64,000 nt of DNA from a virus (IMGVR_UViG_3300033068_001745:17988-81987); one strand, 5' to 3'; counted from the first letter of the stretch, positions 36,301-52,900 are shown. Notes: generated by a model not told the origin, from the sequence alone. Translations and numbers: made by a program.

Positions 36301-39300
36301 AGAACTGAGCTTGAAAAAATGAAAAATTGGGCTGAAAAGAATGATGGTAAATTATTTACAGCTTTAAATAATTTATTAAATACTTTTCCTAAAACTCAAC
36401 TTTCTAATAAACCAAGTGAAATTACTCATCAAAAAGCTGTTGAAATATTTAAAGAATACTTTCCAAATTCTGCTTTATCATTAGAAGATGTAAGTCAAGT
36501 TCTTGGTAAATTATCCTTCCTTCCTAGCTCTGTTGTATATGGTGTTTATAATGGCTTGGTTAGACTTAGACAAGGTGGAACACTTAAAGATACACCGTTT
36601 TTTGAAGGCTTTAGATTGGTATTTAATGCTCTTATAACAGATAAGGAAAAATCTCAAATATTAGAAGAAGCAAGATTAAAATATTTTTTAGGTTTATCTA
36701 AAGATAAAAAAGAAACTATTTTAAAAGAGTTTCAAAAGACTTATTCTCCAAAACTTAATGGTGAGTATGTTTGGCAAGGAAAAGAACTTGAAAATTATTA
36801 TTTAGAGACAATGCTTGCAAGAGAATTTGCAAATAAGGCTACTACAAATAAACCAAAATCTTTTATTCAGAGATTATTTGATAAAATAAGAAGTTGGTTA
36901 GGGATAAACAAAATTGATAGTTTGTTCAATAGAATACTTGCTAAAGAATTTAGAGATTTTCCTTACAGCCCAAAAGATAATCAAGGTACAATTAAAACAA
37001 TGCTTGATGTTTATTCATCTGAAAGTGAGTCAGGTAAGGACTTAATGACAAGTGAAAATGCTTATAGAATTGCTAATAGAATATTTTCTAAAATGGCAAG
37101 AGATAAAATGTCTTTTGAAACTGCTTTAGCTGCAACAAGAAAATATTATGATGATTTAGCTGCAATTCCAGGAATATTAAATGAAACAAAAACTTCTTTA
37201 GAAATATTATCAAGCTCTATAAATGAAATTGATGAGTTTGATGAACGTAATGAAATTGGACTTCAAAATATTGAAAATCTTAGAAAAGAAGTAGAAGATA
37301 GAAAAGCAATACTTTCATTTGACCCTGATACTGTTAGTGAAGAAGGCAATGAAAATGAGGATATTGCAATTAGAGATGGAGAAAACTTTTCACAATCTTT
37401 GCGTGAATTAGGTGGAGAAATGTCAGCTTCTAAAAAGTTTAAAGAATACTTATCAACAATAATGTATGTTGATGATGAATTTGATTTATTTGGAAATGCT
37501 TTTTCAGAAGAATTTAAAAATATGTCTGAAACAGAGCAAAAGAAATTTTATATTCCTGTAGATTTCATTTTAGTTTACAACACAATGCTTAAACTTACAG
37601 CAGGTAAACCCAAATCTGAAATACTTGGATTAAATGGAACAGGTCTTTTGAATCTTATGAAAGACACTGATAAACAATTACTTGCAGTAGTTAATCAAAT
37701 GAATGTTGATATTGCTAACCCACAAGAATTTGATACAACTTTAGATATGATTCTTTCTAATCTTGAAAAACAAAAAGTTCAAGGGAAAATAATCTTACAT
37801 GATAATGAAACAGGTAAATTTGATATGAGTGATGAAAATGCTCAAGGTATTGAAAATAGTCAAATCAATAAATGGGCAAGTGAATATGAAATGAGACATG
37901 TTGGGAATATTGCAGAAACAGAAGAGTTATTAAAGGAGTTGAAATTTCCAACAAGTGCTACAGCTTTATATAAGGCTCTTAACAAGTATGGTTTTAAAGT
38001 TTCAAGACTTTATTGCCAATGGTGTTATGGTTTGAAAACTGGGAAGTATGAAAATGATATAATCCCTAAAATTGCTACAGAATATGGATTAACCACAAAC
38101 AATAGTATTTTAGATAAAACGAACATTGAATATATTTTTGATAAGATTATTAATAGAGAGAATGAAAATGCTAAACTTATTGCTAAAGGTTTACCTGGAG
38201 TTGAAACCATATTTCCAAACGGAGATATTTATTTTGGTGAAAAGAAGAATGAAGGTAGTAGAAATAAATTAAAAGCAGTGGCTTTTGGTAATAGTATTTT
38301 TGATTCATCTGTTAAGAATTTAAGTTATAAAAATTCTGAAAATAAAACAGTTTATGAAATTATTGCACGTATGCAAGTTGGAGATTTTGTCAATATTATA
38401 AATAAGATTACAAAAGCTAATAAACAAGGTGAACCTACTTATGATGCTATAAGAAAAAAAATACTTGATTTGAAAAATGATAATGAAGAAATTGAAAAAC
38501 TTCTCAAAACAGAAGTTGGTGGAAAGTACCCTTATTTAAGCTTTATTAACAGTATTTACAATCTTGTACAAGAAGGTAAAGATATGGAAAATGGTGAAGA
38601 TATGGCTTTAAAAGATGTTCAAGATATTCTTATAGATTTAGGAAAATTCATTTTTCATAATAACCTGGAGAATTTTGTAGAAAAAGATGATAAAGGTAAT
38701 TATAGACAAATGGAAATCGGATTTTTAGGTGGCTATAGGGAAACTTCTGGTGAAATAATTGAAGACACTTATATTGAAGATGAAAAAAGTAAAAGTAAAG
38801 CAGGGACAACTTTTAGTTCTGCAAATGAGCAGGAAAAAACATTAGCTTTACTTGGTGTTTGGATGAAAGGGTGGTACAATCCTATTGTAGCAGCAGGTAA
38901 ATCTATGCAGTTTATTTTCAAAGGAAATAAAGTTAAAAGAATTACACCTCAAAAAATAGAAGATACAAAAAACATTTTGATGAATTGGTTTGACCAAGAA
39001 ATTCATAGAATTGACAGAGGAATAAAAGGACAAGTTAGTAAAGATATTGATAAATATGAACAAAAATCTCAAAAGTTTTTTGAAAATAAAGCATTTGTTG
39101 ATAGTCTTGCTAATACAGATTTGAAAGAAATTTATTCAGCTTTTATTGAAGTAGATTCAAAAGATGCCAATCTTGTTGCTGCAAAGTTACAAGAGAAAAA
39201 AGATTTTATTGAAAAGTATAAAACAGATAAACAATTTAGAGACAATATAAAAGAAGCATTATTTGATTTTCATAATAATTTATCTCTTAACTTTGCAAAC

Positions 39301-42300: not shown

Positions 42301-45300
42301 TTCTTGATAAGAAATGAAAAATTGAGAAATGCTTTGGAAAAAATGACAGCTTCATTAAAAGGAATGAATTATCCTACAAACAGAACAAAAGTTTATAGAG
42401 ATTTGATTTCCTATGTCATAGTAAATATTATTAAAAACAATGATAGTTTGGTTCAGAATTATGCAAAAATTGGCGGAGAAGAAATATTTACAACAGGTTT
42501 GATAAGTAAAGTTAAAACTATTTTGACACCAAAGGTTGATAATTCGTTAATGAAAGGATTAACTGCTGTAAAAAAAGTAATGAAGCAGGGAGAATTTACA
42601 GGAAAAACAATTGATTCAGTGGCAATGAATACTTGGTTAAAAGCTGTAAGATTTGTAGATGAAAAAATGCAAAATGATTATGAGAGATTTAACAGAAGAC
42701 CACATGCTTTGGAAGAAATAAAAATTGCAATGGAAAATGGCAAAACTGTTGATGAAGCTCTTGTAGAGATTGATACTAATAAACTTATGGGAACATTAGC
42801 AAAACTCATGTACATTCAATCAGTAGTTAAAGAAGGACTTCAATTCAAATCAGGAAGTGTTAATTCATTGATTTCTACACCTTTATTTGCACAAACAAAT
42901 GGGCTTATTGACAGATTAATGGATGAAAAGAACTTTGAAGAAATTACAGGAAAATCTGCCGACCAATTAATGATTGATTTTATTAGAAATTTTGTTGCAG
43001 ATGAATCAAATAAATCTTTCTTACCAAGTTTATACAAACAAGAATATTTCATGGAAGCTAATGAACAAGGAGATACTTTGGGAAATGCAAGAATTGAGCT
43101 TAAAAATGCAGGTTTCAATTTTGATGAAAAGAAAAAAGTAATTCCTGCTTTTGGAATAAATTATGGTAAAGTTAAACTTGTACTTAATGAAAATTCTATT
43201 AAATCAATGTTAAATGATGAAGAATTTACTCCAATTTATGAAAGTATAGTTACAAAAGGTGGAAAAGATGTTGTTGGTTATAGAAATGATGATATTAAAT
43301 CTGGAGAAAAGATTGGTAATAATATGTATTATACTGGTAAAAAAGATGCAGAATTTGAAGCTGATTTAATAAAACAATCTTTGAACGAAATTAAAAATCA
43401 AACATTAGCTGAAAAGATATATGCGAGTTTACCAAAGAAAACGGAAAGTGGAAATGTATTAATAAAATCAGTTTATCAACAAGCAGGAATTGATTATGCA
43501 AAGTCTGTTGGAGGTATTTTCAGTTTAAGAGTTAATAATTCTGACAAACATTTCGGAAATCCTTTTAGTTCTGTGCAATCAGAAATAGATAAAGGATTAA
43601 TTGCTACAAAAGATACAAAAGAAGGTGTTGAAAAATATATTGATTGGGTAATTAATTCACAAGATGAAAGAGCTAAATGGATTAGAGAACAACTTGATAA
43701 AGGAATATTGAAAGGTAAACCTATTATTTATTACACAGATAAACCTGCTAAAAATTCCATAAGTCCAAGTAATGAAACACAGCCTTCTCATGCGAATGCT
43801 TTGGATTATTTAATTAATAATTGGGAAAGTGTTATAAACCAATCTGTTGAAGCTAACAAAATGGTACAACCAACTTCCATGAGTGAAATAACAAATCATT
43901 CAGGTGGAGCTTTAGGTGCAGATAGCATGTGGGATAAGATTGGAAGATTATTTGGCGTAGTAAATCATAAACATTATTGGGCTAACCAAAAAACTCCAAT
44001 GGGAAATGTAGAACTCACAAAGCAACAATTAGAAGAAGGAATTGAACATGCAAAGTTAGCAGCCAGAGAACTCGGAAGACCTTTTGTAGATAAATATGCT
44101 AATTTATTAGGCAGAAATTGGTTTCAGATTAAAAATAGTACACAAGTAATTGCTATTGCTCCAATAGTTTATCCAAATGAAAAAAATTCACAAGGATATG
44201 TTGTAAAAGCAACAAGAGCTACTGTTGATGGTGGTACAGGATATGCTGTTGAAATGGCAATAGCTAATGGAAAAGAAGTTAATGTTTTTGATACTAAAAC
44301 AAATCAATGGTACAAATGGAATGGTTCAATTTTTGTAAAATCAGAAGTTCCAATATTACATAAAGACTTTGCAGGAATTGGCAGCAGACAAGATAATGGG
44401 AAAATGACTGATGAATCAATACAAGCTATTAGAGATGTTTATGAAAAGACAAGAAATTCTTTACAAGAACAAAATGATGTAAAAGTTTCAGCTATTAATT
44501 TCAATGATGAACAAAAATCAGCTATAAATCAAGCTATTGAGTTTATTAAAAATGGAAATCCTAAAGAATGGTTTGTAATTGAAGGTAAAGCAGGTGTCGG
44601 AAAGACAACTATTGCAGAACAAATTGTAAGAAACTTTCCGAATAAAAATACAAGTGTTGCTGCTTTATCTTACAAAGCTAAAAGTGTAATCAGAGATGAA
44701 TTTAGAGAAAATGGCATAAAAGCTAATTTTTATAGTTTAGCAGGTTTGTTAGGTCAAAAACTTAATATGGAAACTGGAGAATTTGAAAGAGATGAATTTT
44801 CAATGACAACTCCTCCAATTGAAATGTCTGATTTGATTCTTATAGATGAAGCTTCAATGATTAATGAGCAAGCTTTGGAATTAATAATGCAAACAAAGCC
44901 TACTAATGCAAAAGTAATATTTTTAGGAGATATAGGTCAATTACCACCTATAAGAACTGAAAAGAATAAGTATTACAAGGATAAAAAAGCATTATTTGGG
45001 AAGAAATCTCCTGTATTTGAAGGAAATAATAAAGCTAAACTTCTCACAAGAATTAGACAAGGAGAAGAAAGTCCAATCCTACCTTATGCTGATTTTTATT
45101 GGGAAAATTCACAAGTATCAAATCCTGTTGAATATCCTGCTACAAATAAAAAAAATGTAATTTCAAGTAAAGGTACTTTAAGATTTGTTGATAAATTTGC
45201 TGATATTAAAGATGAAGTTGTTAATGAATTTAAACAATCTGTTGAAACAAACAATCCTAATCATATTAAAGTAGTAACTTACAGAAATGCTACAAGAGAA

Positions 45301-46320
45301 AGTATTAATGAATATGTTCATAATTCTTTATTTGGAAACCAAAACGAGTTCAATAAAGGAGAACTTATAATATTTAATGATAGCTATGATAATATTGAAA
45401 ATTCAACAGAATCACAAATTTCAGATATTACAGAAGTTAAAACAGATGAAAATGGTTTGAAATATGTAGATTTAACAATAATCTATGAAGGTAAAATTAA
45501 ATCTTTTCCTGTTGTTTTAAAAGAAAGTAAAGAAGATTATAAAAAACTTATTTCTGCCAAATTTGCAAACGCAAAAGCTAAAACAGGTTTAGATAGAAAA
45601 TTAGCAATGAAAGAAGCTTGGGCTTTTAAAGGAAAGTATGCTAATATTGATTATGGATATGCAATTACAAGTCATAAATCTCAAGGTTCAACTTATGATA
45701 TTGTTGTAGTAGATGAAAAAGATATTATGTCTGTAAGTCCTATTTCAGCAAAAGAAAAATCAGAAAGTATTTATACAGCACTTACAAGAGCAAGAAATAA
45801 AGTAATCTCTATATCTGAAAAACAAAAATCACCAACAGAAATTGCTAATGAAATAAAAGTTAATCAAAAATCTGTTGCTCAAGTATTTGAAAATATGGAT
45901 AATATGAAAGAAGAGGAAATTGAAGAATTGTTAAATAAAATTAATGAAGATAGATTTATTAGAAGTTTACCTAACGAAATAGAAGGTTTTAATACTGATA
46001 AGTTAATTGAAATTAAGAAAGTATTTAGTAATCCTGAAGCTGATTATTCTGAAATAGAAGATTGGGAAGGTGTAACAATGGAAAAATTAGAAATAGAATA
46101 TTCAAATAAAAATAGTAGAATAATGTCTGATTTAATTCAAGTAATGCCTGAAGGACAAACTGTTAATGAATTTGTAGATAATTTATTAAAACAAAATATA
46201 ATTTTAAAAGACAAAAAACAGTTATCTATATTTGACCAAGAACAAACAGGTTTAACAGAAAAAGATTGGAATAGTCTTAGTGAAAAAGAAAAAGATAAAA
46301 TAAAAGAGTGTTACTTGTAA
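30355..46320 (+). CDS. Giant virion RNA polymerase polyprotein, 5321 aa (TM-like N-terminus, degenerate zincin, RNAP core, macro-like, DUF4326-like, SLOG and SF1 helicase domains)
   Basis: RNAP motifs YAEIILP, GIRIPTQDKHSM (~40960) and catalytic SGEDFDIDK (DFDID 41080-41094) as in crAss-like vRNAPs; helicase motifs GKAGVGKT, DEASM, GDIGQLPP, HKSQG, YTALTRA. Confidence 0.88.
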   Translation: MPDINELLKYVKDKNITPLPVDNNIHSRFSDIPLDINDVHIAQDRNVDLSQIQAPYEVGEAIANSQSTSEKWLNDLGRLGTGAVSATVGGFAMIPAFFDAASSMELSAMYENGAVKWAEGLDEWGQEKFKNYYTQRQEEAYKEASIFKKMTYGEKFWGNSLLANAGFMIGAAVDEAIFSALTAVTSGGAAPLQAVETGWLAARLARRLAEAGTEVMGSGTNLIKNVYRGFTAEGEIAKQAMMSGLKNSRQLLTSAGYESSVEALQFQKEAYNQVLEKKANELGISKEELENNPLHEETLGRLKSGVNSVANGLWLMNLATVGLSNAIGATALFQLEKPILNMLERVNPLRAFMSAGVEDLAKTAGKEIGKDGVQFAAKNLSMAQKAFNIVKSPLSEGTEEFSQGLYQDVGKRYLEDKYNPNAIDMILNGIPLMADEIGKRLGDSSHSGWEEFASGFMSSLLGLPNVGRFVGKKENGNYGFKNDKEQPAWVGGIFQGIAENRQIQNERNENAALNNFLSDKNLAEMLDGKLSTDNITTASVKAFPMIMAAQKRLADGIKSGDKFEQNQAKHDLLAYAAIARDKIGQVENFKKDVLAQYDQHTAILQKGVTAESTQEEIQSVANLESIYQGNTTQEKIAEVNRKKKNTEIKLKDIEAGISRAKSFNLSPDLQDRMAVALSNGNNRVSEANSLLKALQTSLKLPNIQVSNLSSNELYELLDKHKVATSKHKKISDSLQKDKAEFDSLPDEIVAFEGESPRANEKKKAVKERVDNWTKELDAETARLEKELNKKVSEVDFTVESPLTQYREAIDKLQGDEKVQAESLFNDVQRAINQHKEAVKEYNLIMNNPEKAQKQEDEAKEKIQRQIDNKPELPENIEETEEEKSAKEKQLAEQESIKQKEQEEIAKLEGEKRAKKEKEIADRLESEKKAQEESDKKAEELKKQNRAEYQKNIDILDEIINKGKYYDIEVVENMNTDKFKNWGKWFDQIEKLKFMALAKLSNQRNSPYYSVQSITTIDRADNNNLRLNNINNSNKTQYELDLDTPVNEDEFEIVTAPFNTGENTKKVDKNGDPVVGKNPRLENIPNQKGTTIAVVRKGTNKIIGFINDRIFQYKDKNGKMIPFLKPNTRELNPEFNLAWIGMEGKQAEIQDQLNLLSTLTSGSLVKTIEGRLRFPKENAAINLTEIEQLFSNPQVASVSVFQRIYQNENILYQEWKYNRERKIWEAGEISDQDRVDANTLAITYNDGHISNISVNVSKENELKWFKSALNNLANKGTTSTSKVGGSVFFTINSDEISQTVVIEENKDGTRVAIKVLKGVKGEKETQVFEWTNIQEYLDLIKTFQGMKPEESLEAFKQFFNEKLKIASDKGKLPLVYKLYTVSFNDESFDKEIAEGKYIIPKMEGKLSVVNVEKADIAANEGQVSLIGEVKELIGKQVGTSNYSVENGLIFYNNLDGTVRPVLNPNRKSIIEAVEDDIKRRRKENPSVERGVLINYESGKTKEQLIDIVSKLKEGKITFDEIYEEFSNLPTSTLLEVKKAFNEGTLADKIQFGLDINELSEVQSKTRSKEEVIKSRQEALFEKQKAETALKDSEYKIVKKKELITGKVTETKVKRTVEEKAKYEDFYRKTIEDINKQIEEYDAELQSTETNLQPEQTTVEGEQNIPTDVGTNNVSPSNIEQQKADIERRRPEIVTRYTDSDVKANPDKIFVFGDNTQRTGTGGQAQIRNNPNAFGIATKLKPTNNADAFMSDNNLEANKNIIDSDIQKILSQNKPLVFPKDGFGTGLAKLKEKAPKTYEYLKQRLADEFYFDNDKGEINAKYDKELKALEENTPLAPKMPINKRTFETGQYVKYNDEVYIITKQNSNGTWQIYNPNLEGVNAKKSVSEDKLELVNGKAKIITYRDADYIVTPKNTIISLTSNKKVFEDEKNGNRINILNLAHNDSLFTDDFQDRFDIKDEEKTYTQQEIKDYVKANKENKTDEVRTELEKMKNWAEKNDGKLFTALNNLLNTFPKTQLSNKPSEITHQKAVEIFKEYFPNSALSLEDVSQVLGKLSFLPSSVVYGVYNGLVRLRQGGTLKDTPFFEGFRLVFNALITDKEKSQILEEARLKYFLGLSKDKKETILKEFQKTYSPKLNGEYVWQGKELENYYLETMLAREFANKATTNKPKSFIQRLFDKIRSWLGINKIDSLFNRILAKEFRDFPYSPKDNQGTIKTMLDVYSSESESGKDLMTSENAYRIANRIFSKMARDKMSFETALAATRKYYDDLAAIPGILNETKTSLEILSSSINEIDEFDERNEIGLQNIENLRKEVEDRKAILSFDPDTVSEEGNENEDIAIRDGENFSQSLRELGGEMSASKKFKEYLSTIMYVDDEFDLFGNAFSEEFKNMSETEQKKFYIPVDFILVYNTMLKLTAGKPKSEILGLNGTGLLNLMKDTDKQLLAVVNQMNVDIANPQEFDTTLDMILSNLEKQKVQGKIILHDNETGKFDMSDENAQGIENSQINKWASEYEMRHVGNIAETEELLKELKFPTSATALYKALNKYGFKVSRLYCQWCYGLKTGKYENDIIPKIATEYGLTTNNSILDKTNIEYIFDKIINRENENAKLIAKGLPGVETIFPNGDIYFGEKKNEGSRNKLKAVAFGNSIFDSSVKNLSYKNSENKTVYEIIARMQVGDFVNIINKITKANKQGEPTYDAIRKKILDLKNDNEEIEKLLKTEVGGKYPYLSFINSIYNLVQEGKDMENGEDMALKDVQDILIDLGKFIFHNNLENFVEKDDKGNYRQMEIGFLGGYRETSGEIIEDTYIEDEKSKSKAGTTFSSANEQEKTLALLGVWMKGWYNPIVAAGKSMQFIFKGNKVKRITPQKIEDTKNILMNWFDQEIHRIDRGIKGQVSKDIDKYEQKSQKFFENKAFVDSLANTDLKEIYSAFIEVDSKDANLVAAKLQEKKDFIEKYKTDKQFRDNIKEALFDFHNNLSLNFANKTIGTIGINLPQVLIDKKEKLVENDLNEGTENHRLMVNVLQEFYFDDLINSTAFYNTFIGDKAMSLKGYIDVNKRAGKHIAGGVSSETANRNIRAIGVKSIKQMLGIDEDFQIDKDWYSERENYPLKNKDKFEPTDTTDAESYQTVRANIDFYLKSNAKYTKEVHEIYEMINYGIEPSFDWWEKLDKNNAALQKRKMVYADFLQYIKTSVNTLTWQECSFWNSEALKAFANEAIRLNVEKLTPLQELAVIKTLTENNSANVAKFRTVLPSRKKMFGLLSFMLNNKIDYVYHDSASKSLQRRIRAKDFDKLEAKNAHYLNPTYWKEQVATDGVKMEVVDGTQKIQLIFSEQNGEIKVDIGQNTFDLEKVSDTYKQYLANRISMMYEKVLAELQNEDGTINIDELKAGFVKTLEKSGSTQQTIKFFKESNINLPHIVEKAESMFMSRVSKVLSHKKPGSALALASPKLYPIMRATTKIELSNGRTISENEVISTETYKKFSSEFTEGKNFAISRLRHGVKEGKHYYAEIILPANHPALAYMKDGFIPAEFAEMVGIRIPTQDKHSMLSMKVVDVIPAYKGSTVIVPLESILLSGEDFDIDKKYIYWYAGYQTVNGWKKYGDYKTFKELDEEVKQLASEENMSANDWKTQNIEQYDNMVKRMNESGKLEKTQTNKYELDNDLLDLEKVMVHNNGNNDIAYTPSSMDIVNQAVQSHILLVDKERLRCAEFYGMELAAFDTLPSSEKVEKIQKFVKEKGYINVYGNHSPLDKLTAYYNNDVGSENIGVWALSNVVMQTLIKESKYIKVENGAYMLHGIRINDIISSFLSSATDNDKEQHAAILQLDQEKCGIMFDLMWRQGLHPTVALGIIYDGNGGNNMDLGALMQLNPNLSETDAKFLNDLMQGDEQAMEKQKYLLKSSTNAAKYTMALTTLMSLNKGFKSTISDNQTIVEAIKTLKKGVVDKETGLTLPKPYDGWNIVQSDIHLKEEVDKFEKVYDELTPKVFLIRNEKLRNALEKMTASLKGMNYPTNRTKVYRDLISYVIVNIIKNNDSLVQNYAKIGGEEIFTTGLISKVKTILTPKVDNSLMKGLTAVKKVMKQGEFTGKTIDSVAMNTWLKAVRFVDEKMQNDYERFNRRPHALEEIKIAMENGKTVDEALVEIDTNKLMGTLAKLMYIQSVVKEGLQFKSGSVNSLISTPLFAQTNGLIDRLMDEKNFEEITGKSADQLMIDFIRNFVADESNKSFLPSLYKQEYFMEANEQGDTLGNARIELKNAGFNFDEKKKVIPAFGINYGKVKLVLNENSIKSMLNDEEFTPIYESIVTKGGKDVVGYRNDDIKSGEKIGNNMYYTGKKDAEFEADLIKQSLNEIKNQTLAEKIYASLPKKTESGNVLIKSVYQQAGIDYAKSVGGIFSLRVNNSDKHFGNPFSSVQSEIDKGLIATKDTKEGVEKYIDWVINSQDERAKWIREQLDKGILKGKPIIYYTDKPAKNSISPSNETQPSHANALDYLINNWESVINQSVEANKMVQPTSMSEITNHSGGALGADSMWDKIGRLFGVVNHKHYWANQKTPMGNVELTKQQLEEGIEHAKLAARELGRPFVDKYANLLGRNWFQIKNSTQVIAIAPIVYPNEKNSQGYVVKATRATVDGGTGYAVEMAIANGKEVNVFDTKTNQWYKWNGSIFVKSEVPILHKDFAGIGSRQDNGKMTDESIQAIRDVYEKTRNSLQEQNDVKVSAINFNDEQKSAINQAIEFIKNGNPKEWFVIEGKAGVGKTTIAEQIVRNFPNKNTSVAALSYKAKSVIRDEFRENGIKANFYSLAGLLGQKLNMETGEFERDEFSMTTPPIEMSDLILIDEASMINEQALELIMQTKPTNAKVIFLGDIGQLPPIRTEKNKYYKDKKALFGKKSPVFEGNNKAKLLTRIRQGEESPILPYADFYWENSQVSNPVEYPATNKKNVISSKGTLRFVDKFADIKDEVVNEFKQSVETNNPNHIKVVTYRNATRESINEYVHNSLFGNQNEFNKGELIIFNDSYDNIENSTESQISDITEVKTDENGLKYVDLTIIYEGKIKSFPVVLKESKEDYKKLISAKFANAKAKTGLDRKLAMKEAWAFKGKYANIDYGYAITSHKSQGSTYDIVVVDEKDIMSVSPISAKEKSESIYTALTRARNKVISISEKQKSPTEIANEIKVNQKSVAQVFENMDNMKEEEIEELLNKINEDRFIRSLPNEIEGFNTDKLIEIKKVFSNPEADYSEIEDWEGVTMEKLEIEYSNKNSRIMSDLIQVMPEGQTVNEFVDNLLKQNIILKDKKQLSIFDQEQTGLTEKDWNSLSEKEKDKIKECYL

Positions 46321-46342
46321 CACTCTTCAACTAAAATAATTT

Positions 46343-46696
46343 ATGACAGTACAAGAATTTGTAGGAGCATTATTTGAAATTGAAACAACTGCTCACATAG
46401 CACATTTACAAACAACAAGCTATGCACAACACATGGCTTTGAATGAATTATATACAAGCATTGTTGACTGGAGAGATGATTTCTGTGAAAGCTATACTGG
46501 TAAATATGGAATTATAAAAGATATTCCTATTAAAAAAGAACCAGAAGGTCAAGATATGATTCTTTATATTAAAAGAAAAGCTCTTGCTTTTGAAGAATAT
46601 GAAAAGAGTTTAAAAGATGGATATTTACAACAAATCGTGCAATCTGTTATTGAATTGATTTACAGCACAATATATAAGTTGAAAAACTTGAAATAA
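46343..46696 (+). CDS. Ferritin/Dps-like four-helix protein (DUF5856-like), 117 aa
   Basis: AHIAHLQTTSYAQHMALNELY..I.D..D.F.E pattern of phage Dps-like proteins. Confidence 0.7.
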   Translation: MTVQEFVGALFEIETTAHIAHLQTTSYAQHMALNELYTSIVDWRDDFCESYTGKYGIIKDIPIKKEPEGQDMILYIKRKALAFEEYEKSLKDGYLQQIVQSVIELIYSTIYKLKNLK

Positions 46697-46706
46697 CTAA
46701 TTTATA

Positions 46707-49271
46707 ATGAACAAAAGGTGTATTAACCCAAATAGTATTCAAGTTAAAGAATTGAGTGATGAATTAGGATTAAAACCTATAATTGTAGCTGCTAAAATTG
46801 CTGTTTGGCAAGATAAAAATAATACTTATGATTTTCCTTCCGTTAATGATTTGGTGGAGGGAGATTTCAATATTTTCTATAAAATGGAAATGTTAAAGAA
46901 TTTATTACCTAAAGCAATTGCTTATGATAATTATTTTAGGGATTGGGGAACTGATTTTGTTAAAGAAAAAATGCTTGAAAAAGGTTTCACTCAAGAAGAA
47001 ATAGATTATCTTGAAGAACTTCATAATAAAAATCCAAAATTTACTAATAAAGATTTCACAAGACTTATTTCTGACGAGTATAGTGATATTCTTGAAAAAA
47101 ATATTTCATTAAATAGAATAAACCAATTAATGACTTCTCAGTTTGATGAAGAATTAGAAAGAAGGGTTTTGACTTATTTAGAACCTTTTGGTATTACCAT
47201 GAAAGAAGTAGATAACTTGAAAGATTCATTCGGTGATGTAAGGGGTATTGCTGATATTTATAATAAAGTTATTTTGGCTTCCAAAGATAGAAATATTTCA
47301 ACTTTACCTGAGATGGTAGGATATTTTTATGTTGAACTCATAGGAAGTAAGGAAGGAATAGGTAAAACTTTAATGACTTCTATTGAAAAATGGGGAAAAT
47401 ATGAAGAGCATTTTAATAAATATCAAAATATATATTTATTACCAAACGGAAAACCTGATGTATCTAAAATAAAAAAGAAAATCATTGCAGAGGCAATATC
47501 TGAAGCTGTTGTAAAAAATTATACAGCAGAAAAAAGCGATTTTTGGAAACAAATATTAGATTTTATTGAAAAAATTACATCTTTGTTTAAAAATAGTAAT
47601 AACATTCCGATAGAATCTTTGACAAATGAAGTGGCAAAAAAAATTCTCTCTAATAATAGAGAAGATATTATCAGTAGAATTAAAGAAAAAAAAGAATTAA
47701 AAACTTGGGAAGGAACTTTGAAACCTTATCCTCATATTAAAGAAGTGTTAAATAAATTTTCAAGCATTGGAGCAATATTAACAGGTAGTTTAGCTTTAAG
47801 AAAACAAGGAACTGTTTATAGAGATATTAATGAATCTGTACACGATTTAGATTTTGCTGTTAATTTTGACAGTTATAATGGAGATATTAAAGGTTATCTT
47901 GCTAAGATAAATAAATTAGTGGGAAACACTTATTATCCTCTTAATGATGGATTTACAGGTAATATTGGTGAAATAGTTGTCAATGGGATTATCACAAACT
48001 ATCCTGAACTTGCTGAAAAATTTAAAAATTTAAGAGGGGATTATCAAACAAGACTTGACCAAATGACAAGAAGTGAGCAAGATAAGATTCTTCTTATAGA
48101 TTTATTTTTTCATAGTAGTAACTCAAGTATAATAACTGATGGAGTAGCAGAAGCATCTATCATATTTGCAGCAAAAAGTTTTATGGGAATGAGAGCTAAA
48201 GATATGAATGATTTATTAAACTATACTCCTTATGAAAAATCTGATAAAGTTTCTAACTACAGTTATTCTCAAAAACTCAATTCCATTGACAAAGTAGGAG
48301 AAAATCAAACAGAAATAACCATTGGAAATAAAAAATATAAGCAGGGAATTTATAGCTTTAAAGAAATTTTTGAGAATATTGGAGATAAATCCTATGCAAA
48401 TAAATTACTTAAAATGCTCTATGGACTTTCTAATCAAAATATTGATGATATGAAAGTAGAAATTGTTGATAACATTACAGAAGCAGGACATTTTGATAAT
48501 GGAATAATCAGATTAAATATAAATTCTTTAAATCCTGAAACAGTTTTTACGCATGAAATCATACATGCTCTCACAGCCCTTAAATTAGCCTATTGGAAGA
48601 AGAACTCTCCAAAGGTATATAAAGACATGGAAAAAGTTTGGATTGATTCTAAGGCTGTTTTAGACCCAAATAACACACGTTACGAATTTAGTTCCATAGA
48701 TGAATTTTATGCAGCACTTTCCAAACAATCTTTTGTTGAAGAATTAGCTTCTATTAAAGATGATTCTTTTATTGGCAAATTAATTCAACTGTTTAAAGAT
48801 ATGTTGAGCAAACTTGGAATTAAAGTTGAAGGAACACTTGCTGAAAAAGCATTAAATAATCTTACAGAAATTGTAAAATCTGAAATTGGAAGTAATGATA
48901 TTCAGCTTGATTTATTGAAAAGTGAAGAAAAAATTTCTTCTAATAAACAAAAAGTTTATTATCAAAATAATTCAGGACAAAATAATGAAGATTTTATTGC
49001 TTCTGAAAAAACAATAAGAGATTTAGCTGCAAGATTAGCTAATAGAATTGGAATAGAAGTTAAATTTATATCTGATAGAAGTCAAAATTTTAAGGGGAAA
49101 TTGGAAGGAAAAGTTGCTACTGTGAATTTAGCTTATGCTACACTTGACACAATTTTTCACGAGGTGAGTGGTCATGCTATTATAGCTACTCTAAAACAAA
49201 AATCTGAAACTTCTATAAAGAATCATATTCAAGATTTAATTGAGAAAGGAGTAATCATAAAAGAATGTTAG
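46707..49271 (+). CDS. Polyvalent cargo protein, 854 aa: degenerate zincin, Pol-beta nucleotidyltransferase, HExxH zincin, N-half of a split zincin
   Basis: TLPEMVGYF; TGSLAL..HDLDFAV..LIDLF..K..RAKDMND; THEIIHALT..DEFYA; FHEVSGH near the C-terminus. Confidence 0.65.
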   Translation: MNKRCINPNSIQVKELSDELGLKPIIVAAKIAVWQDKNNTYDFPSVNDLVEGDFNIFYKMEMLKNLLPKAIAYDNYFRDWGTDFVKEKMLEKGFTQEEIDYLEELHNKNPKFTNKDFTRLISDEYSDILEKNISLNRINQLMTSQFDEELERRVLTYLEPFGITMKEVDNLKDSFGDVRGIADIYNKVILASKDRNISTLPEMVGYFYVELIGSKEGIGKTLMTSIEKWGKYEEHFNKYQNIYLLPNGKPDVSKIKKKIIAEAISEAVVKNYTAEKSDFWKQILDFIEKITSLFKNSNNIPIESLTNEVAKKILSNNREDIISRIKEKKELKTWEGTLKPYPHIKEVLNKFSSIGAILTGSLALRKQGTVYRDINESVHDLDFAVNFDSYNGDIKGYLAKINKLVGNTYYPLNDGFTGNIGEIVVNGIITNYPELAEKFKNLRGDYQTRLDQMTRSEQDKILLIDLFFHSSNSSIITDGVAEASIIFAAKSFMGMRAKDMNDLLNYTPYEKSDKVSNYSYSQKLNSIDKVGENQTEITIGNKKYKQGIYSFKEIFENIGDKSYANKLLKMLYGLSNQNIDDMKVEIVDNITEAGHFDNGIIRLNINSLNPETVFTHEIIHALTALKLAYWKKNSPKVYKDMEKVWIDSKAVLDPNNTRYEFSSIDEFYAALSKQSFVEELASIKDDSFIGKLIQLFKDMLSKLGIKVEGTLAEKALNNLTEIVKSEIGSNDIQLDLLKSEEKISSNKQKVYYQNNSGQNNEDFIASEKTIRDLAARLANRIGIEVKFISDRSQNFKGKLEGKVATVNLAYATLDTIFHEVSGHAIIATLKQKSETSIKNHIQDLIEKGVIIKEC

Positions 49272-49987
49272 TACTACATGACTATAATGATGCTAATAAA
49301 TATTTAGCAGGAGTATATTGTATAATAAATAGTATTGATGATAGGATTTATATTGGTTCTACAAAATGTTTTAAAAGAAGATTTACTGAACATTTAGTAA
49401 GTTTTGCAGAAAATAATCATGGTAATAGACATCTTTTAAACTTTGTGAATAAATATGGAGTTGATACTTTAACTTTTAAAATATTAGAAATATTAGAATT
49501 TGATATTCTTTTAATAAGAGAACAATGGTATTTAGATAATGTTATTGATTTCAAAAAAGATTTTAATATTTGCCGTATTGCAGGAACACCTCCTAATTAT
49601 AATAGAAGTTTTTCTGAAGAAGATATTATAAAAATTGCAAAATTATATAATGAAGGAATGTCTTGCTGTAAAATATCTGAATTATTATTTAATGATAGAA
49701 ATTTTAGATGTAAAATATCAAATATTACAAGAGGAGAATCTTATTCTGAATTTAAACATTTATTTAATTATAGAAAATATAACCAAACAGGTAGGAAATA
49801 TAAACAATCTACCAAAGATAAAATAGGTAAAGCTAATAAAGGAACAAAAGTTTTATCTGAATCTGATATAATATTTATAAGAGACAATTTGAATAAAGTT
49901 TCTATAAGAAAAATGGGAAAATTATTAAATAAAAATCATAGGTCAATATGCTATTATATCAACACTATTATGAAAGATGGCTTGTAA
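49265..49987 (+). CDS. Free-standing GIY-YIG homing endonuclease
   Basis: AGVYCIINSIDDRIYIGST..KRRF.EH..REQWYLD..FNI; overlaps both neighbours (7 and 11 nt). Confidence 0.9.
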   Translation: MLVLHDYNDANKYLAGVYCIINSIDDRIYIGSTKCFKRRFTEHLVSFAENNHGNRHLLNFVNKYGVDTLTFKILEILEFDILLIREQWYLDNVIDFKKDFNICRIAGTPPNYNRSFSEEDIIKIAKLYNEGMSCCKISELLFNDRNFRCKISNITRGESYSEFKHLFNYRKYNQTGRKYKQSTKDKIGKANKGTKVLSESDIIFIRDNLNKVSIRKMGKLLNKNHRSICYYINTIMKDGL

Positions 49988-52900
49988 ATATAAATATGAA
50001 AATAAATGGTATTCAGAGGAAGAGCTAATGAATAAAATTCAAAATGAAAATTCTAATTTCTCAACTTTATACCAAAATCTTCTCAAAGAACTTGAAAGTG
50101 GTAGAGGTAAGGAGGTACTTGATAGAATTAAACAAACTTATACTAATAAATATAATAATAAAGATGTACAAGATGCTCTATCTGTAATTAAAGAATTAGA
50201 AGGTTTAGAAGTATTTGGGTTTTCAAATGAAGACCAAGAAAGACTTGATAAAGCTAATCTTATTGTAGCAAATACAAATGAAAAATACACATTAGAAGAA
50301 CAACAAGAGGAAGCAATTGTAGAACTTCTTGGTCTTATGGCTGCTGAAAAACTTGATGCTGTAAAAGATGGTAAACTTATCTCTTTATTAAAAAGATTAC
50401 TTAAAGAAATGGCTACTTTCATGCGTAATTTACTTAGACAAAAAGAAATTGAGGTAGATAAATTGCCTGATAATATGACTTTAGATGATATTGCTAATGT
50501 TTTAGCTTACAGTAATTCTAAAATTATACTTCCAGGAAGTGAAGTTATTTATACAACTCCTGATAATCAAACTTTTAAAACTTATCAAGAGGCAAGTAAT
50601 CATATTAGTAAGTTAGCTAAGAATACGGGGGAAATTGATTTGAATAACATAAAAGGTAAAAATAAAGCTGTTACAATTAAAGATGTTCCCGATAATTTTC
50701 ATATTAACGTGGGAGACCAAAACTATCCTATTGATATTTATTTTTCAAAAGGTCAGGATGGTTTATGGTATGAATTTAATTATTCAAAAGACCCTAATGA
50801 TGAAGGAGAAGTAATTTCTGAAGATAATGTTATAATAATGTATAATAGAAGTGTTAATCAAATAGATACTTTTATTGAAAAAAACAAAGAATTTGAACAA
50901 TCAAAAGAAATAATTGAAGAATGGAAAAAAGTAAACGGTATAAAATATAATCCTGAAGAAATTTACAGCAGAGGTCAAGGTTTTTATTCAGTTGTAGGAG
51001 CTTACTCTACATTTGATGTAAAACTTATGTTCCAAAATTTACTTCATCATATTGAAGATAATAAGAAAGCAGGTGGACATTTTGCTATTTCAGCATTTAC
51101 AAAACCTATTGATAAAACTATTTCTCATCTTGAAGGAGGTGGCGGTAAAATTAAATTTGTAATTTATCCAAAATCTGAAGATATTTTATGGGCAACTAAT
51201 AGAGATGCTTACAGTGGAAGTGTTTGGGATGCAGCAGAAAAAGTAAATAAAGATAAAAAATCTGAATTACTTGGAGTGAGTTATACCAAATATCCTTCTT
51301 TGAATAATATCAATTATGTAAAGCCGAATTTAGCTGATATTGTTGATAACCTTGCTGACCATCATAATGAACTTGGAATTGTTTTAAATAATAATTTTAG
51401 GCTTGAAGTAGATGAGGATGTACCTTATGAAATTAAAAGATTGGCAGAAGTAATTAATTCTGTTTTGGATGATACTTATGGTAAAATTAAAAAACTTAAT
51501 ATTAATAGTAGTCAAAGTATTCAACCTACTATAACTGAAAAAGATTTGAAGGAAAGTATTGGAAGTGTTAAAGATAATATATTGAAAGATACTTATATTG
51601 AAGTGGAAGGTTGGGGAAATGTTCTAAATGATAAAAGTAATAATAAAAAAGAATATAGTGAACAAGCTCTTATCAACACAAAAATAGCTGCTTTAAAAGA
51701 AGTTGCTAAAAAATATCCACGTTCTTTAATCAGAAGTGAAGTAGTAACCAATAATAATTTCAATACTTATTATCAAAAATCAGTTGAAGGTGGTCAAGAA
51801 ATGCAAGGAAAACTTAGCAAAGATAATGTTCGAGTTGGAGACTTACTTGTTAATGAAAGCATTGCTTTGAGAGTTGTAGCTTTGAATGAAAATGATTTAA
51901 CAACAGAAGATGGACAAACAATTCCTTATGATGCTGATTTTAATGTATTTAGAATTGCCCCAGATGAGATTTCTGAAAGTGAATCTATTGAAGATGTATC
52001 TATTAATGAGTATGAAAGTGAATTAAGTGAAAATAAACCAGAAGATTTGGCGATGAAAGAAATTCCTGAAGAAAAACTTGATAATACAGTTTTAGAAGTT
52101 GAAGAAAAAGATTTAGATTGGTGGAGAAAAATATATTTAGCTTATGATGCAATGAAAAAAGAACTTGCAAATACAAGCCAAAATATAAGTGGTAAAATCT
52201 TATATAATGATGCCTCCTCTCATGCAAAAAGTGTTGAGAAGTTACATGAAGATAATCTTACTGATACACCTATGTTAAAAGCTATTAAACAAGCTGCTTC
52301 TATTGCATTGTATGTAAGTAACTTAAAGTATAATTTACTTACAAAAGGTGAAGTTAGTGTAGATGAATCTGCTCAAACCAATGTTTTAAATTCCCCACTT
52401 TTAGGACTTGCAAAGAAAATTAAAGAAGCTTATAAAGGAGATACTTCAAATTGGACAAATGAAGAGCATATAAAATATAATAAAATGGCTGAATACATTA
52501 ATACTTATGTGGAAAAACATTCTGCTGATTTAAAGAATTTGAAACTTATCATTAGACAAAGTAAAAATCAAACAAACGATATAAATGATTATTTGAGAAG
52601 TATAGGGCAAGCAGGTAAATTTGAAACAACTTTGGAAGAAATGCAAACTGTTATTGATGCAATGGAAGAAATTCAATTTGTGATGAAAAGTAGTTCTCAC
52701 TTTCCAAGTGTTCTTATGATTAACAATAGAGAAGAAATTGCTAAAAAAATAGTTTCTGATAATGAACAAATTACAAGAGCTAATAATAAAATTGAAACTC
52801 AAATTGCTCAAAAAGAAGCACGAAAAATTAAAAAACCAGAAGAAACAGAAAAACTTGATGAAGATATTGCTAAATTAAGAGAATCTATAAAACCTTTAAA

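Follow-up and report, generated by a model that had tools for sequence, protein, structure and literature searches.

Cargo genes of the window and their terminal cysteines

The stretch IMGVR_UViG_3300033068_001745:17988-81987 (64,000 nucleotides, hereafter the window) belongs to a crAss-like phage, as indicated by a match of its major head protein and by RNA polymerase (RNAP) motif matches to crassviruses. Three large open reading frames (ORFs), encoding proteins of 5321, 854 and 1910 aa, lie in this order on one strand (Table 1), and the cysteines at their facing ends are the subject of this study. The boundary between the 5321-aa and 854-aa proteins is referred to as junction 1, and that between the 854-aa and 1910-aa proteins as junction 2. 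The end modules at a junction are called the C-hook and the N-hook, and together they make up a clasp. The 5321-aa protein carries the DFDxD catalytic motif of the RNAP at residue 3576. A search with this motif retrieved 112 phage records, and among the matches listed all were crassviruses or unclassified gut phages.

BLASTP searches of the window cargo against phage crAss001 gave matches to gp47 (1e-16), gp50 (4e-13) and gp49 (2e-10), and the order gp47-gp50-gp49 is kept in the window, where it follows smaller cargo genes. The 5321-aa protein is a fusion of gp47-like and gp50-like parts, and a nuclease cassette divides a single gp49-like protein into the 854-aa and 1910-aa pieces. A first-pass annotation of this DNA had treated the three as the last three ejection proteins; they are not the three standard cargo proteins. 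By homology to phages where this has been shown, the cargo is most likely packaged in the virion and injected. Searches of Pfam and PHROG returned no family for the 854-aa protein, the 1910-aa protein or the hooks, apart from a sub-threshold helix-turn-helix match on the C-hook of junction 2, and reading the window with genetic codes 15 and 4 gave no improvement. Error-free contigs of one sequencing run, possibly from the source sample, cover nearly all of the stretch, and a single contig of an independent run from 2018 spans positions 48983-50141, that is, the second junction. The DNA at the junctions is therefore not an assembly error.

The 5321-aa protein contains six cysteines (residues 2554, 2557, 3200, 3705, 3827 and 5319, the last at position -3), the 854-aa protein only Cys5 and Cys854, and the 1910-aa protein only Cys3, exactly as the first-pass annotation had listed them. 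At the local Cys frequency, the chance of finding a Cys in all four facing 5-residue segments is about 1e-9, although this test was made post hoc. The non-random placement claimed in that annotation is also seen in relatives, as described below. The same annotation had pointed out IKEC at both C-termini. Close relatives end junction 1 differently, and the two IKEC ends of the window fall into different clasp classes (class A at junction 1, class B at junction 2); a common IKEC signal is not supported, and the shared IKEC is largely coincidence. Two of the internal cysteines of the RNAP protein, Cys2554 and Cys2557, form a CxxC pair (window 38014-38025) in otherwise Cys-poor surroundings, and the close relative L005 has a CxxC as well.

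Terminal cysteines and clasp classes in the Crassvirales

The survey covered about 190 loci, drawn from IMG/VR and from reference genomes; these loci are mutually related, so that the counts given here are not independent events. Where the RNAP protein is not fused to the gp49-like protein, a Cys is present within the last six residues of 94 of 95 distinct C-termini, and the remaining one has it at -14. With an internal Cys frequency of 0.033% in these relatives (177 of 531,989 residues), the expected value for a Cys in the last six residues is 0.2%. None of the five RNAP C-termini that are fused to a gp49-like protein has a Cys. On the other side of the junction, 97 of 102 gp49-like N-termini have a Cys within six residues of a start, whereas their C-termini, which end the chain, have none in the last 25 residues (0/101). 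The survey of paired terminal cysteines and fused relatives that the first-pass annotation had suggested thus found the pairs conserved in about 190 loci and the fused forms without Cys at the join.

Cysteines tend to be present on both sides of a junction or on neither. Among ORFs lying between the RNAP and gp49-like genes, 16 have both cysteines, five passenger genes have neither and one has only one. At the junction upstream of the RNAP, Cys was found on both sides in six cases and on neither side in eleven; the single discordant case is a record that contains Ns. The cultured phages phi14:2, crAss001, crAss002 and DAC15 obey the same rule, as do the reference genomes of a Carjivirus and two Suoliviridae. 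The Cys pair of crAss001 and DAC15 is retained even though gp47 is encoded on the opposite strand, distant from its partner gene, which argues for a link at the level of the proteins rather than the genes. Two apparent exceptions, L006 and IAS gp055/056, were explained by a frameshift and by a run of Ns, respectively.

In the close relatives L003-L005 the sequences corresponding to the 854-aa and 1910-aa proteins form one ORF (2667, 1752 or 2111 aa) with no Cys at the join; the sole terminal Cys of this ORF is at residue 4-5. Relative to the standard set of cargo proteins, one of the usual junctions has been fused in the window, and one new junction has been opened.

The hooks were assigned to crude motif classes, and class matching was counted over 117 distinct junctions without correction for kinship. 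The class-A N-hook faces a plain helix in 42 of 45 cases, the class-C N-hook an acidic coil in 10 of 13, and the class-D N-hook a helix ending in LC in 28 of 41. Junction 1 of the window is of class A, like the gp47-gp50 junction of crAss001, but at a different place in the chain. A profile of the class-A N-hook matched 744 proteins; among the best 150 matches, 147 have the hook at the N-terminus with its Cys, and the other three look like mis-called starts. Direct scans with the short hook sequences gave few matches.

When a class-A junction was read in frame through its stop, AlphaFold2 gave a model of good overall confidence, with a predicted local distance difference test (pLDDT) value of 82.7 and a predicted template modelling score of 0.72; this is weak support, as the two halves were artificially joined and the model yielded no S-S distance. 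A fold search with the class-A hook model gave no significant match; its best Z was 4.3, to UBA-like bundles, and no chain of the cyanopodophage A4, discussed below, was among the fold matches listed. Complex prediction for the class-B hook pair, made with alignments of 26 rows, scored 0.20 against a mark of 0.32 and was not counted as evidence.

Two loci have unusual arrangements. In the close relative L192 (3465-3569) the class-A C-hook occupies a 34-aa frame of its own that overlaps the RNAP stop with a one-base shift, and the RNAP ends without Cys; this may be an assembly error or a natural break. In L189 (9581-15678) a 914-aa piece without C-terminal Cys is followed by a GIY-YIG gene, a 624-aa unrelated ORF and a class-B-like N-hook.

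A nuclease cassette inside a zincin-like domain

Junction 2 lies inside a domain. The end of the 854-aa protein and the start of the 1910-aa protein correspond to the two halves of a zincin-like domain, with the helix bearing the third-ligand Glu near 50307. The layout, an HExxxH helix, a variable insert and a Glu-bearing helix, fits the MPTase of HExxxH type, a domain type described for polyvalent proteins (PMC5512222). A single-sequence model of the unbroken domain had a low pLDDT (49.9), with selecase as the best Foldseek row (E 0.043) and weak minigluzincin rows. Compared with L003 and L005, which have cassette-free alleles at this site, window positions 49203-50060 take the place of the variable loop that separates the HExxxH helix from the Glu helix. 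The inserted unit consists of a 22-aa C-hook, a GIY-YIG endonuclease gene and a 28-aa N-hook. The nuclease was identified by PF01541 (32.4 bits, cut-off 22.6), and the catalytic Arg and Glu are present in the alignment. The GIY-YIG gene has split the zincin-like domain in two, apparently without breaking it.

The same arrangement at the same site was found in L192, L208, L211 and L217. In total, class-B clasps with a GIY-YIG gene occupy at least four mapped cargo sites, each with an uninterrupted allele elsewhere. One site lies about 470 residues downstream of the zincin insertion in loci where the zincin is intact (L183, L199, L210 and L222), and two sites about 30 residues apart lie in another domain (L193, L206, L215 and L216; L204 and L218). 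Two of the insertion sites are conserved stretches without a loop. Two scans for DNA patterns of the class-B N-hook returned 13 and 17 matches, and every readable upstream cargo gene ended in Cys. Class-B pairs without a nuclease, 0-63 nt apart, occur in about a dozen loci. Further, in L022 (13108-13686) a GIY-YIG gene lies within a class-C junction at the ordinary boundary of the RNAP and gp49-like genes, possibly a first step to a cassette.

Two kinds of spliced elements were considered for junction 2 and rejected. The halves of a split intein would start with Cys or Ser (N-half) and end with Asn or Gln before the nucleophile (C-half); no such ends are present, and the hooks gave no Hint domain match. 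A group I intron with a GIY-YIG ORF does not fit either, since the ORF overlaps both flanking genes and Rfam found no ribozyme core; neither this part of the window nor any of 11 cassette loci gave an Rfam intron match. RNA sequencing runs contained no joint across the cassette, at a coverage too low to test splicing.

The arrangement has two partial parallels. In Aeromonas phage Aeh1, the free-standing endonuclease gene mobE splits nrdA, and C- and N-terminal tails derived from the element restore function without splicing (Crona et al., PMC3045599). In the window, likewise, an endonuclease gene splits a domain that is unbroken in relatives, with 22-aa and 28-aa tails and neither intron nor intein. 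Aeh1 differs in having an HNH enzyme at a single site in a cytoplasmic enzyme, and the abstract on it mentions no Cys link; the tails of the crAss-like phages are Cys-tipped and belong to a family also found at nuclease-free junctions, the nuclease is of the GIY-YIG type, at least four sites are occupied and the host gene encodes a virion protein. Fractured genes (Dassa et al., PMC2677866) have a similar order, with the N-terminal host part and a tag, a nuclease gene, and a second tag with the C-terminal host part, but the window has no intein domains, and its tags are probably kept and cross-linked instead of being spliced out.

Table 1. Positions of the cargo genes, hooks and passenger genes in the window.
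Feature	Position	Strand	Remarks
Virion RNA polymerase polyprotein, 5321 aa	30355..46320	+	gp47-like N-part fused to gp50-like RNAP; first chain link; no N-terminal Cys
Junction-1 C-hook, class A	46240..46317	+	helical end with Cys5319 (codon 46309-46311); same type as crAss001 gp47 end
DUF5856 / Dps-ferritin-like passenger gene, 117 aa	46343..46696	+	phrog_858; sits in junction 1
Middle piece, 854 aa	46707..49271	+	N-terminal part of gp49-like polyvalent cargo protein; Cys solely at 5 and 854
Junction-1 N-hook, class A, about 50 aa	46707..46862	+	three helices; Cys5 codon 46719-46721
N-half of zincin-like domain (MPTase, HExxxH type)	48990..49202	+	motif at 49158-49175
Junction-2 C-hook, class B, 22 aa	49203..49268	+	helix, then short strand with Cys854 as last residue (codon 49266-49268); insertion not present in fused relatives
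GIY-YIG endonuclease gene, 240 aa	49265..49987	+	ATG overlaps Cys854 codon; 3' end overlaps next start; between both hooks
Last piece, gp49-like, 1910 aa	49977..55709	+	starts with C-half of zincin-like domain; no C-terminal Cys, free chain end
Junction-2 N-hook, class B, 28 aa	49977..50060	+	MAC, then hairpin-like YxY and helix; codon of Cys3 at 49983-49985; part of the insertion

A Dda/RecD-like SF1B helicase is fused near the C-terminal end of the RNAP protein (window 44500-45810; phrog_325, E 4e-72), and DUF7831 and DprA/SLOG-like domains are also found within the 5321-aa protein. The 854-aa protein contains a swappable block of about 480 aa (window 46863-48300) with a nucleotidyltransferase-like motif, which is missing from three close relatives. 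The DUF5856 gene of junction 1 is missing at this position in L005. Ferritin-superfamily genes of two families (DUF5856 and classical ferritin, PF00210) recur in clasp junctions of unrelated crAss-like phages (window 46343-46696, L019:13445-13933, L029:7808-8305 and L208); a redox role for them is speculation.

How the cargo pieces may be joined

We propose, with a probability of roughly 0.72, that class-matched, Cys-tipped clasps tie the cargo pieces head to tail and tolerate cassettes between them. The RNAP cargo of crassviruses would be one polyprotein, encoded in one to several pieces, and each break would bear a matched pair of short hooks, with Cys at the end of the C-hook and at residue 3-6 of the N-hook. 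The chain in the window would run from the 5321-aa through the 854-aa to the 1910-aa protein. The hooks would pair non-covalently during assembly, and oxidation after lysis or in the periplasm would lock them as a disulfide in the mature virion, which the host cytoplasm could reduce. As the clasp would rejoin the pieces after translation, foreign genes could be tolerated in the break, and a GIY-YIG gene flanked by the two halves of a class-B clasp would form a unit able to insert into cargo domains and split them, with no need for RNA or protein to be spliced. That the hooks pair directly is highly probable, and disulfide chemistry at the clasps is probable too. Spread of the cassette by homing is the somewhat favoured explanation of its distribution. 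That the link also orders ejection and is then reduced in the cytoplasm is suggested tentatively.

A precedent for such a bond comes from the cyanopodophage A4 (Anabaena phage A-4L), where cryo-electron microscopy showed that gp27 docks on gp26 by its C-terminal helix, with a disulfide between Cys1715 and Cys5 (PMC12002296, PNAS 2025). The sole Cys of gp27 is residue 1715 of 1717, at -3, the sole Cys of gp26 is residue 5 of 1114, and the two genes are adjacent. As in the window, giant ejection proteins encoded side by side carry a near-sole Cys at -3 upstream and at residue 3-5 downstream. A4 is an unrelated podophage with a single bond that was described as structural stabilisation and was not recognised as a general rule; it has no multi-link chain, and no clasp classes or mobility have been reported for it. 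The resemblance to the crassvirus hooks is one of Cys placement. The A-4L pair (L039), which lies outside the Crassvirales, suggests that the clasp principle may be wider.

Homologous cargo proteins with the same terminal Cys pattern are found in phi14:2 (gp67-gp66-gp65; bioRxiv 10.1101/2020.03.07.982082) and crAss001 (gp47-gp50-gp49; PMC10172136), where, unlike in the window, the gp47-like and gp50-like proteins are separate and the gp49-like protein is unsplit. Fusion into one cargo polyprotein in some phages was already known (bioRxiv 10.1101/2020.03.07.982082). Neither paper mentions terminal cysteines or cargo disulfides. Virions of crAss001 contain other disulfides, and mass spectrometry of non-reduced virions was run (PMC10172136). 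In N4-like phages, Cys depletion of the giant injected proteins has been ascribed to passage through the oxidising periplasm (PMC11445570), which accounts for the Cys-poor background but not for the retained terminal pairs.

The first-pass annotation had proposed that the proteins are joined head to tail by disulfides or a shared metal site, and that this linkage explains the genes at both junctions. Head-to-tail linkage through the terminal cysteines is strongly supported by conservation, the both-or-neither rule, loss on fusion and the A4 example. The explanation of the junction genes holds for the GIY-YIG gene, which divides a domain and so needs a clasp; a ferritin-like gene between separate genes needs no disulfide.

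Several observations weigh against the proposal. The bond has been directly observed in no crassvirus, and the crAss001 map does not resolve these proteins. Assembly takes place in the reducing cytoplasm, and many hosts are anaerobic, so that the timing of bond formation is unexplained; the search for a thioredoxin family member in the phage's own record gave no match, which is uninformative, as the record is about 40% complete. A few loci break the Cys rule (L189, L132, L128 and, at its RNAP end, L192), some of which look like frameshifts. A 324-aa piece of L215 has class-B hooks at both ends, so that pairing is not strictly orthogonal. The nucleases of the cassettes are only 25-50% alike between sites, with the catalytic motif kept, and do not form a single supported clade in a tree. 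A single mobile element is therefore not established, and several captures or replacements appear as likely as one mobile nuclease lineage. The Cys codon also serves as the start codon of the nuclease at sites s1, s2 and s5. As for the middle piece of L215, it could close on itself or be skipped.

The closest competitor, plausible but with less than even odds, is that clasps and disulfides are real but serve only for co-packaging, 1:1:1 stoichiometry and stability of the proteins within the capsid, or for reassembly of split domains, so that threading as one chain would not be required. It overlaps with the clasp proposal and differs from it in function only. The A4 authors describe the gp27-gp26 disulfide as a stabiliser of the pre-ejectosome (PMC12002296), the tails of Aeh1 NrdA serve as assembly domains (PMC3045599), and the split zincin needs joined halves after entry, when a disulfide would be reduced. 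By contrast, the strict N-to-C colinearity of the pieces and their interchangeability with true fusion suit a continuous thread, and Bayfield et al. propose that the cargo is ejected in order, in the N-to-C direction and partly unfolded.

That both cysteines coordinate one metal ion or Fe-S cluster bridging the ends is improbable. Two cysteines are brought together, a metal bridge would be possible in the reducing cytoplasm, and junctions repeatedly hold genes of the ferritin superfamily. A metal site would be expected to have three or four conserved ligands, however, and in all four hook alignments Cys is the sole invariant residue, with no conserved His, second Cys or acidic ligand, so that the metal site named in the first-pass annotation found no backing; in A4 the same geometry holds a plain disulfide (PMC12002296). 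Slightly less probable again is that each hook acts on its own as a signal for packaging or modification and binds a third partner instead of the neighbouring cargo protein, such as the portal or a chaperone. No direct binding test was passed, and the class-A N-hook has a generic small three-helix shape, which would suit such a signal; but hooks come and go in pairs, are absent from both outer chain ends, and their classes co-vary.

Protein ligation by trans-splicing or transpeptidation, giving a peptide-bonded polyprotein, is very unlikely. Its layout recalls fractured genes, with a split intein around a free-standing nuclease (PMC2677866), but the hooks are only 22-50 aa without a Hint match or a terminal Asn or Gln, the upstream Cys ends the chain and does not start an intein half, the downstream Cys is at residue 3-6, and gp47, gp49 and gp50 of crAss001 have separate entries, each with its own mass (PMC10172136). 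The least probable reading is that the cysteines are a by-product of gene overlap (TGT in a stop overlapping ATG) or that junction 2 is a group I intron. GIY-YIG genes are often located in introns, and Cys854 does overlap the start of the GIY-YIG gene, but this reading is largely refuted: the Cys codon overlaps the ATG of the next hook in only 22 of 117 junctions, overlap cannot account for the N-terminal Cys or for opposite-strand pairs, and the nuclease ORF overlaps both flanking genes, leaving no non-coding room for an intron.

Parts of the proposed system have precedents in the terminal disulfide of A4, the rescue tails of Aeh1 and the split-intein fractured genes. We found no paper on an order-wide terminal Cys rule, on clasp classes or on clasps combined with nuclease cassettes, and no report of cargo disulfides in crassviruses, in a search in which subscription journals were thinly covered.

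How several MDa of crassvirus cargo are packaged and ejected in order is an open question (PMC10172136). It is conceivable, at a little under even odds, that the multi-protein cargo is injected as one disulfide-linked thread made up of interchangeable, class-matched clasps, and that the clasp with its GIY-YIG gene is a distinct homing element that has repeatedly invaded cargo domains and makes its insertion harmless through a redox-reversible covalent link rather than through splicing of RNA or protein. The clasp proposal predicts specific pairs of cysteines in cultured phages: gp47 C2339 with gp50 C5 and gp50 C2404 with gp49 C5 in crAss001, and C1797 with C3 and C2179 with C3 in phi14:2. The clasps would explain why fusion, splitting, inversion or interruption leaves the cargo block unharmed. 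They point to a way in which homing endonucleases could reside in essential genes with neither intron nor intein, and to short protein couplers that are class-matched and redox-reversible.

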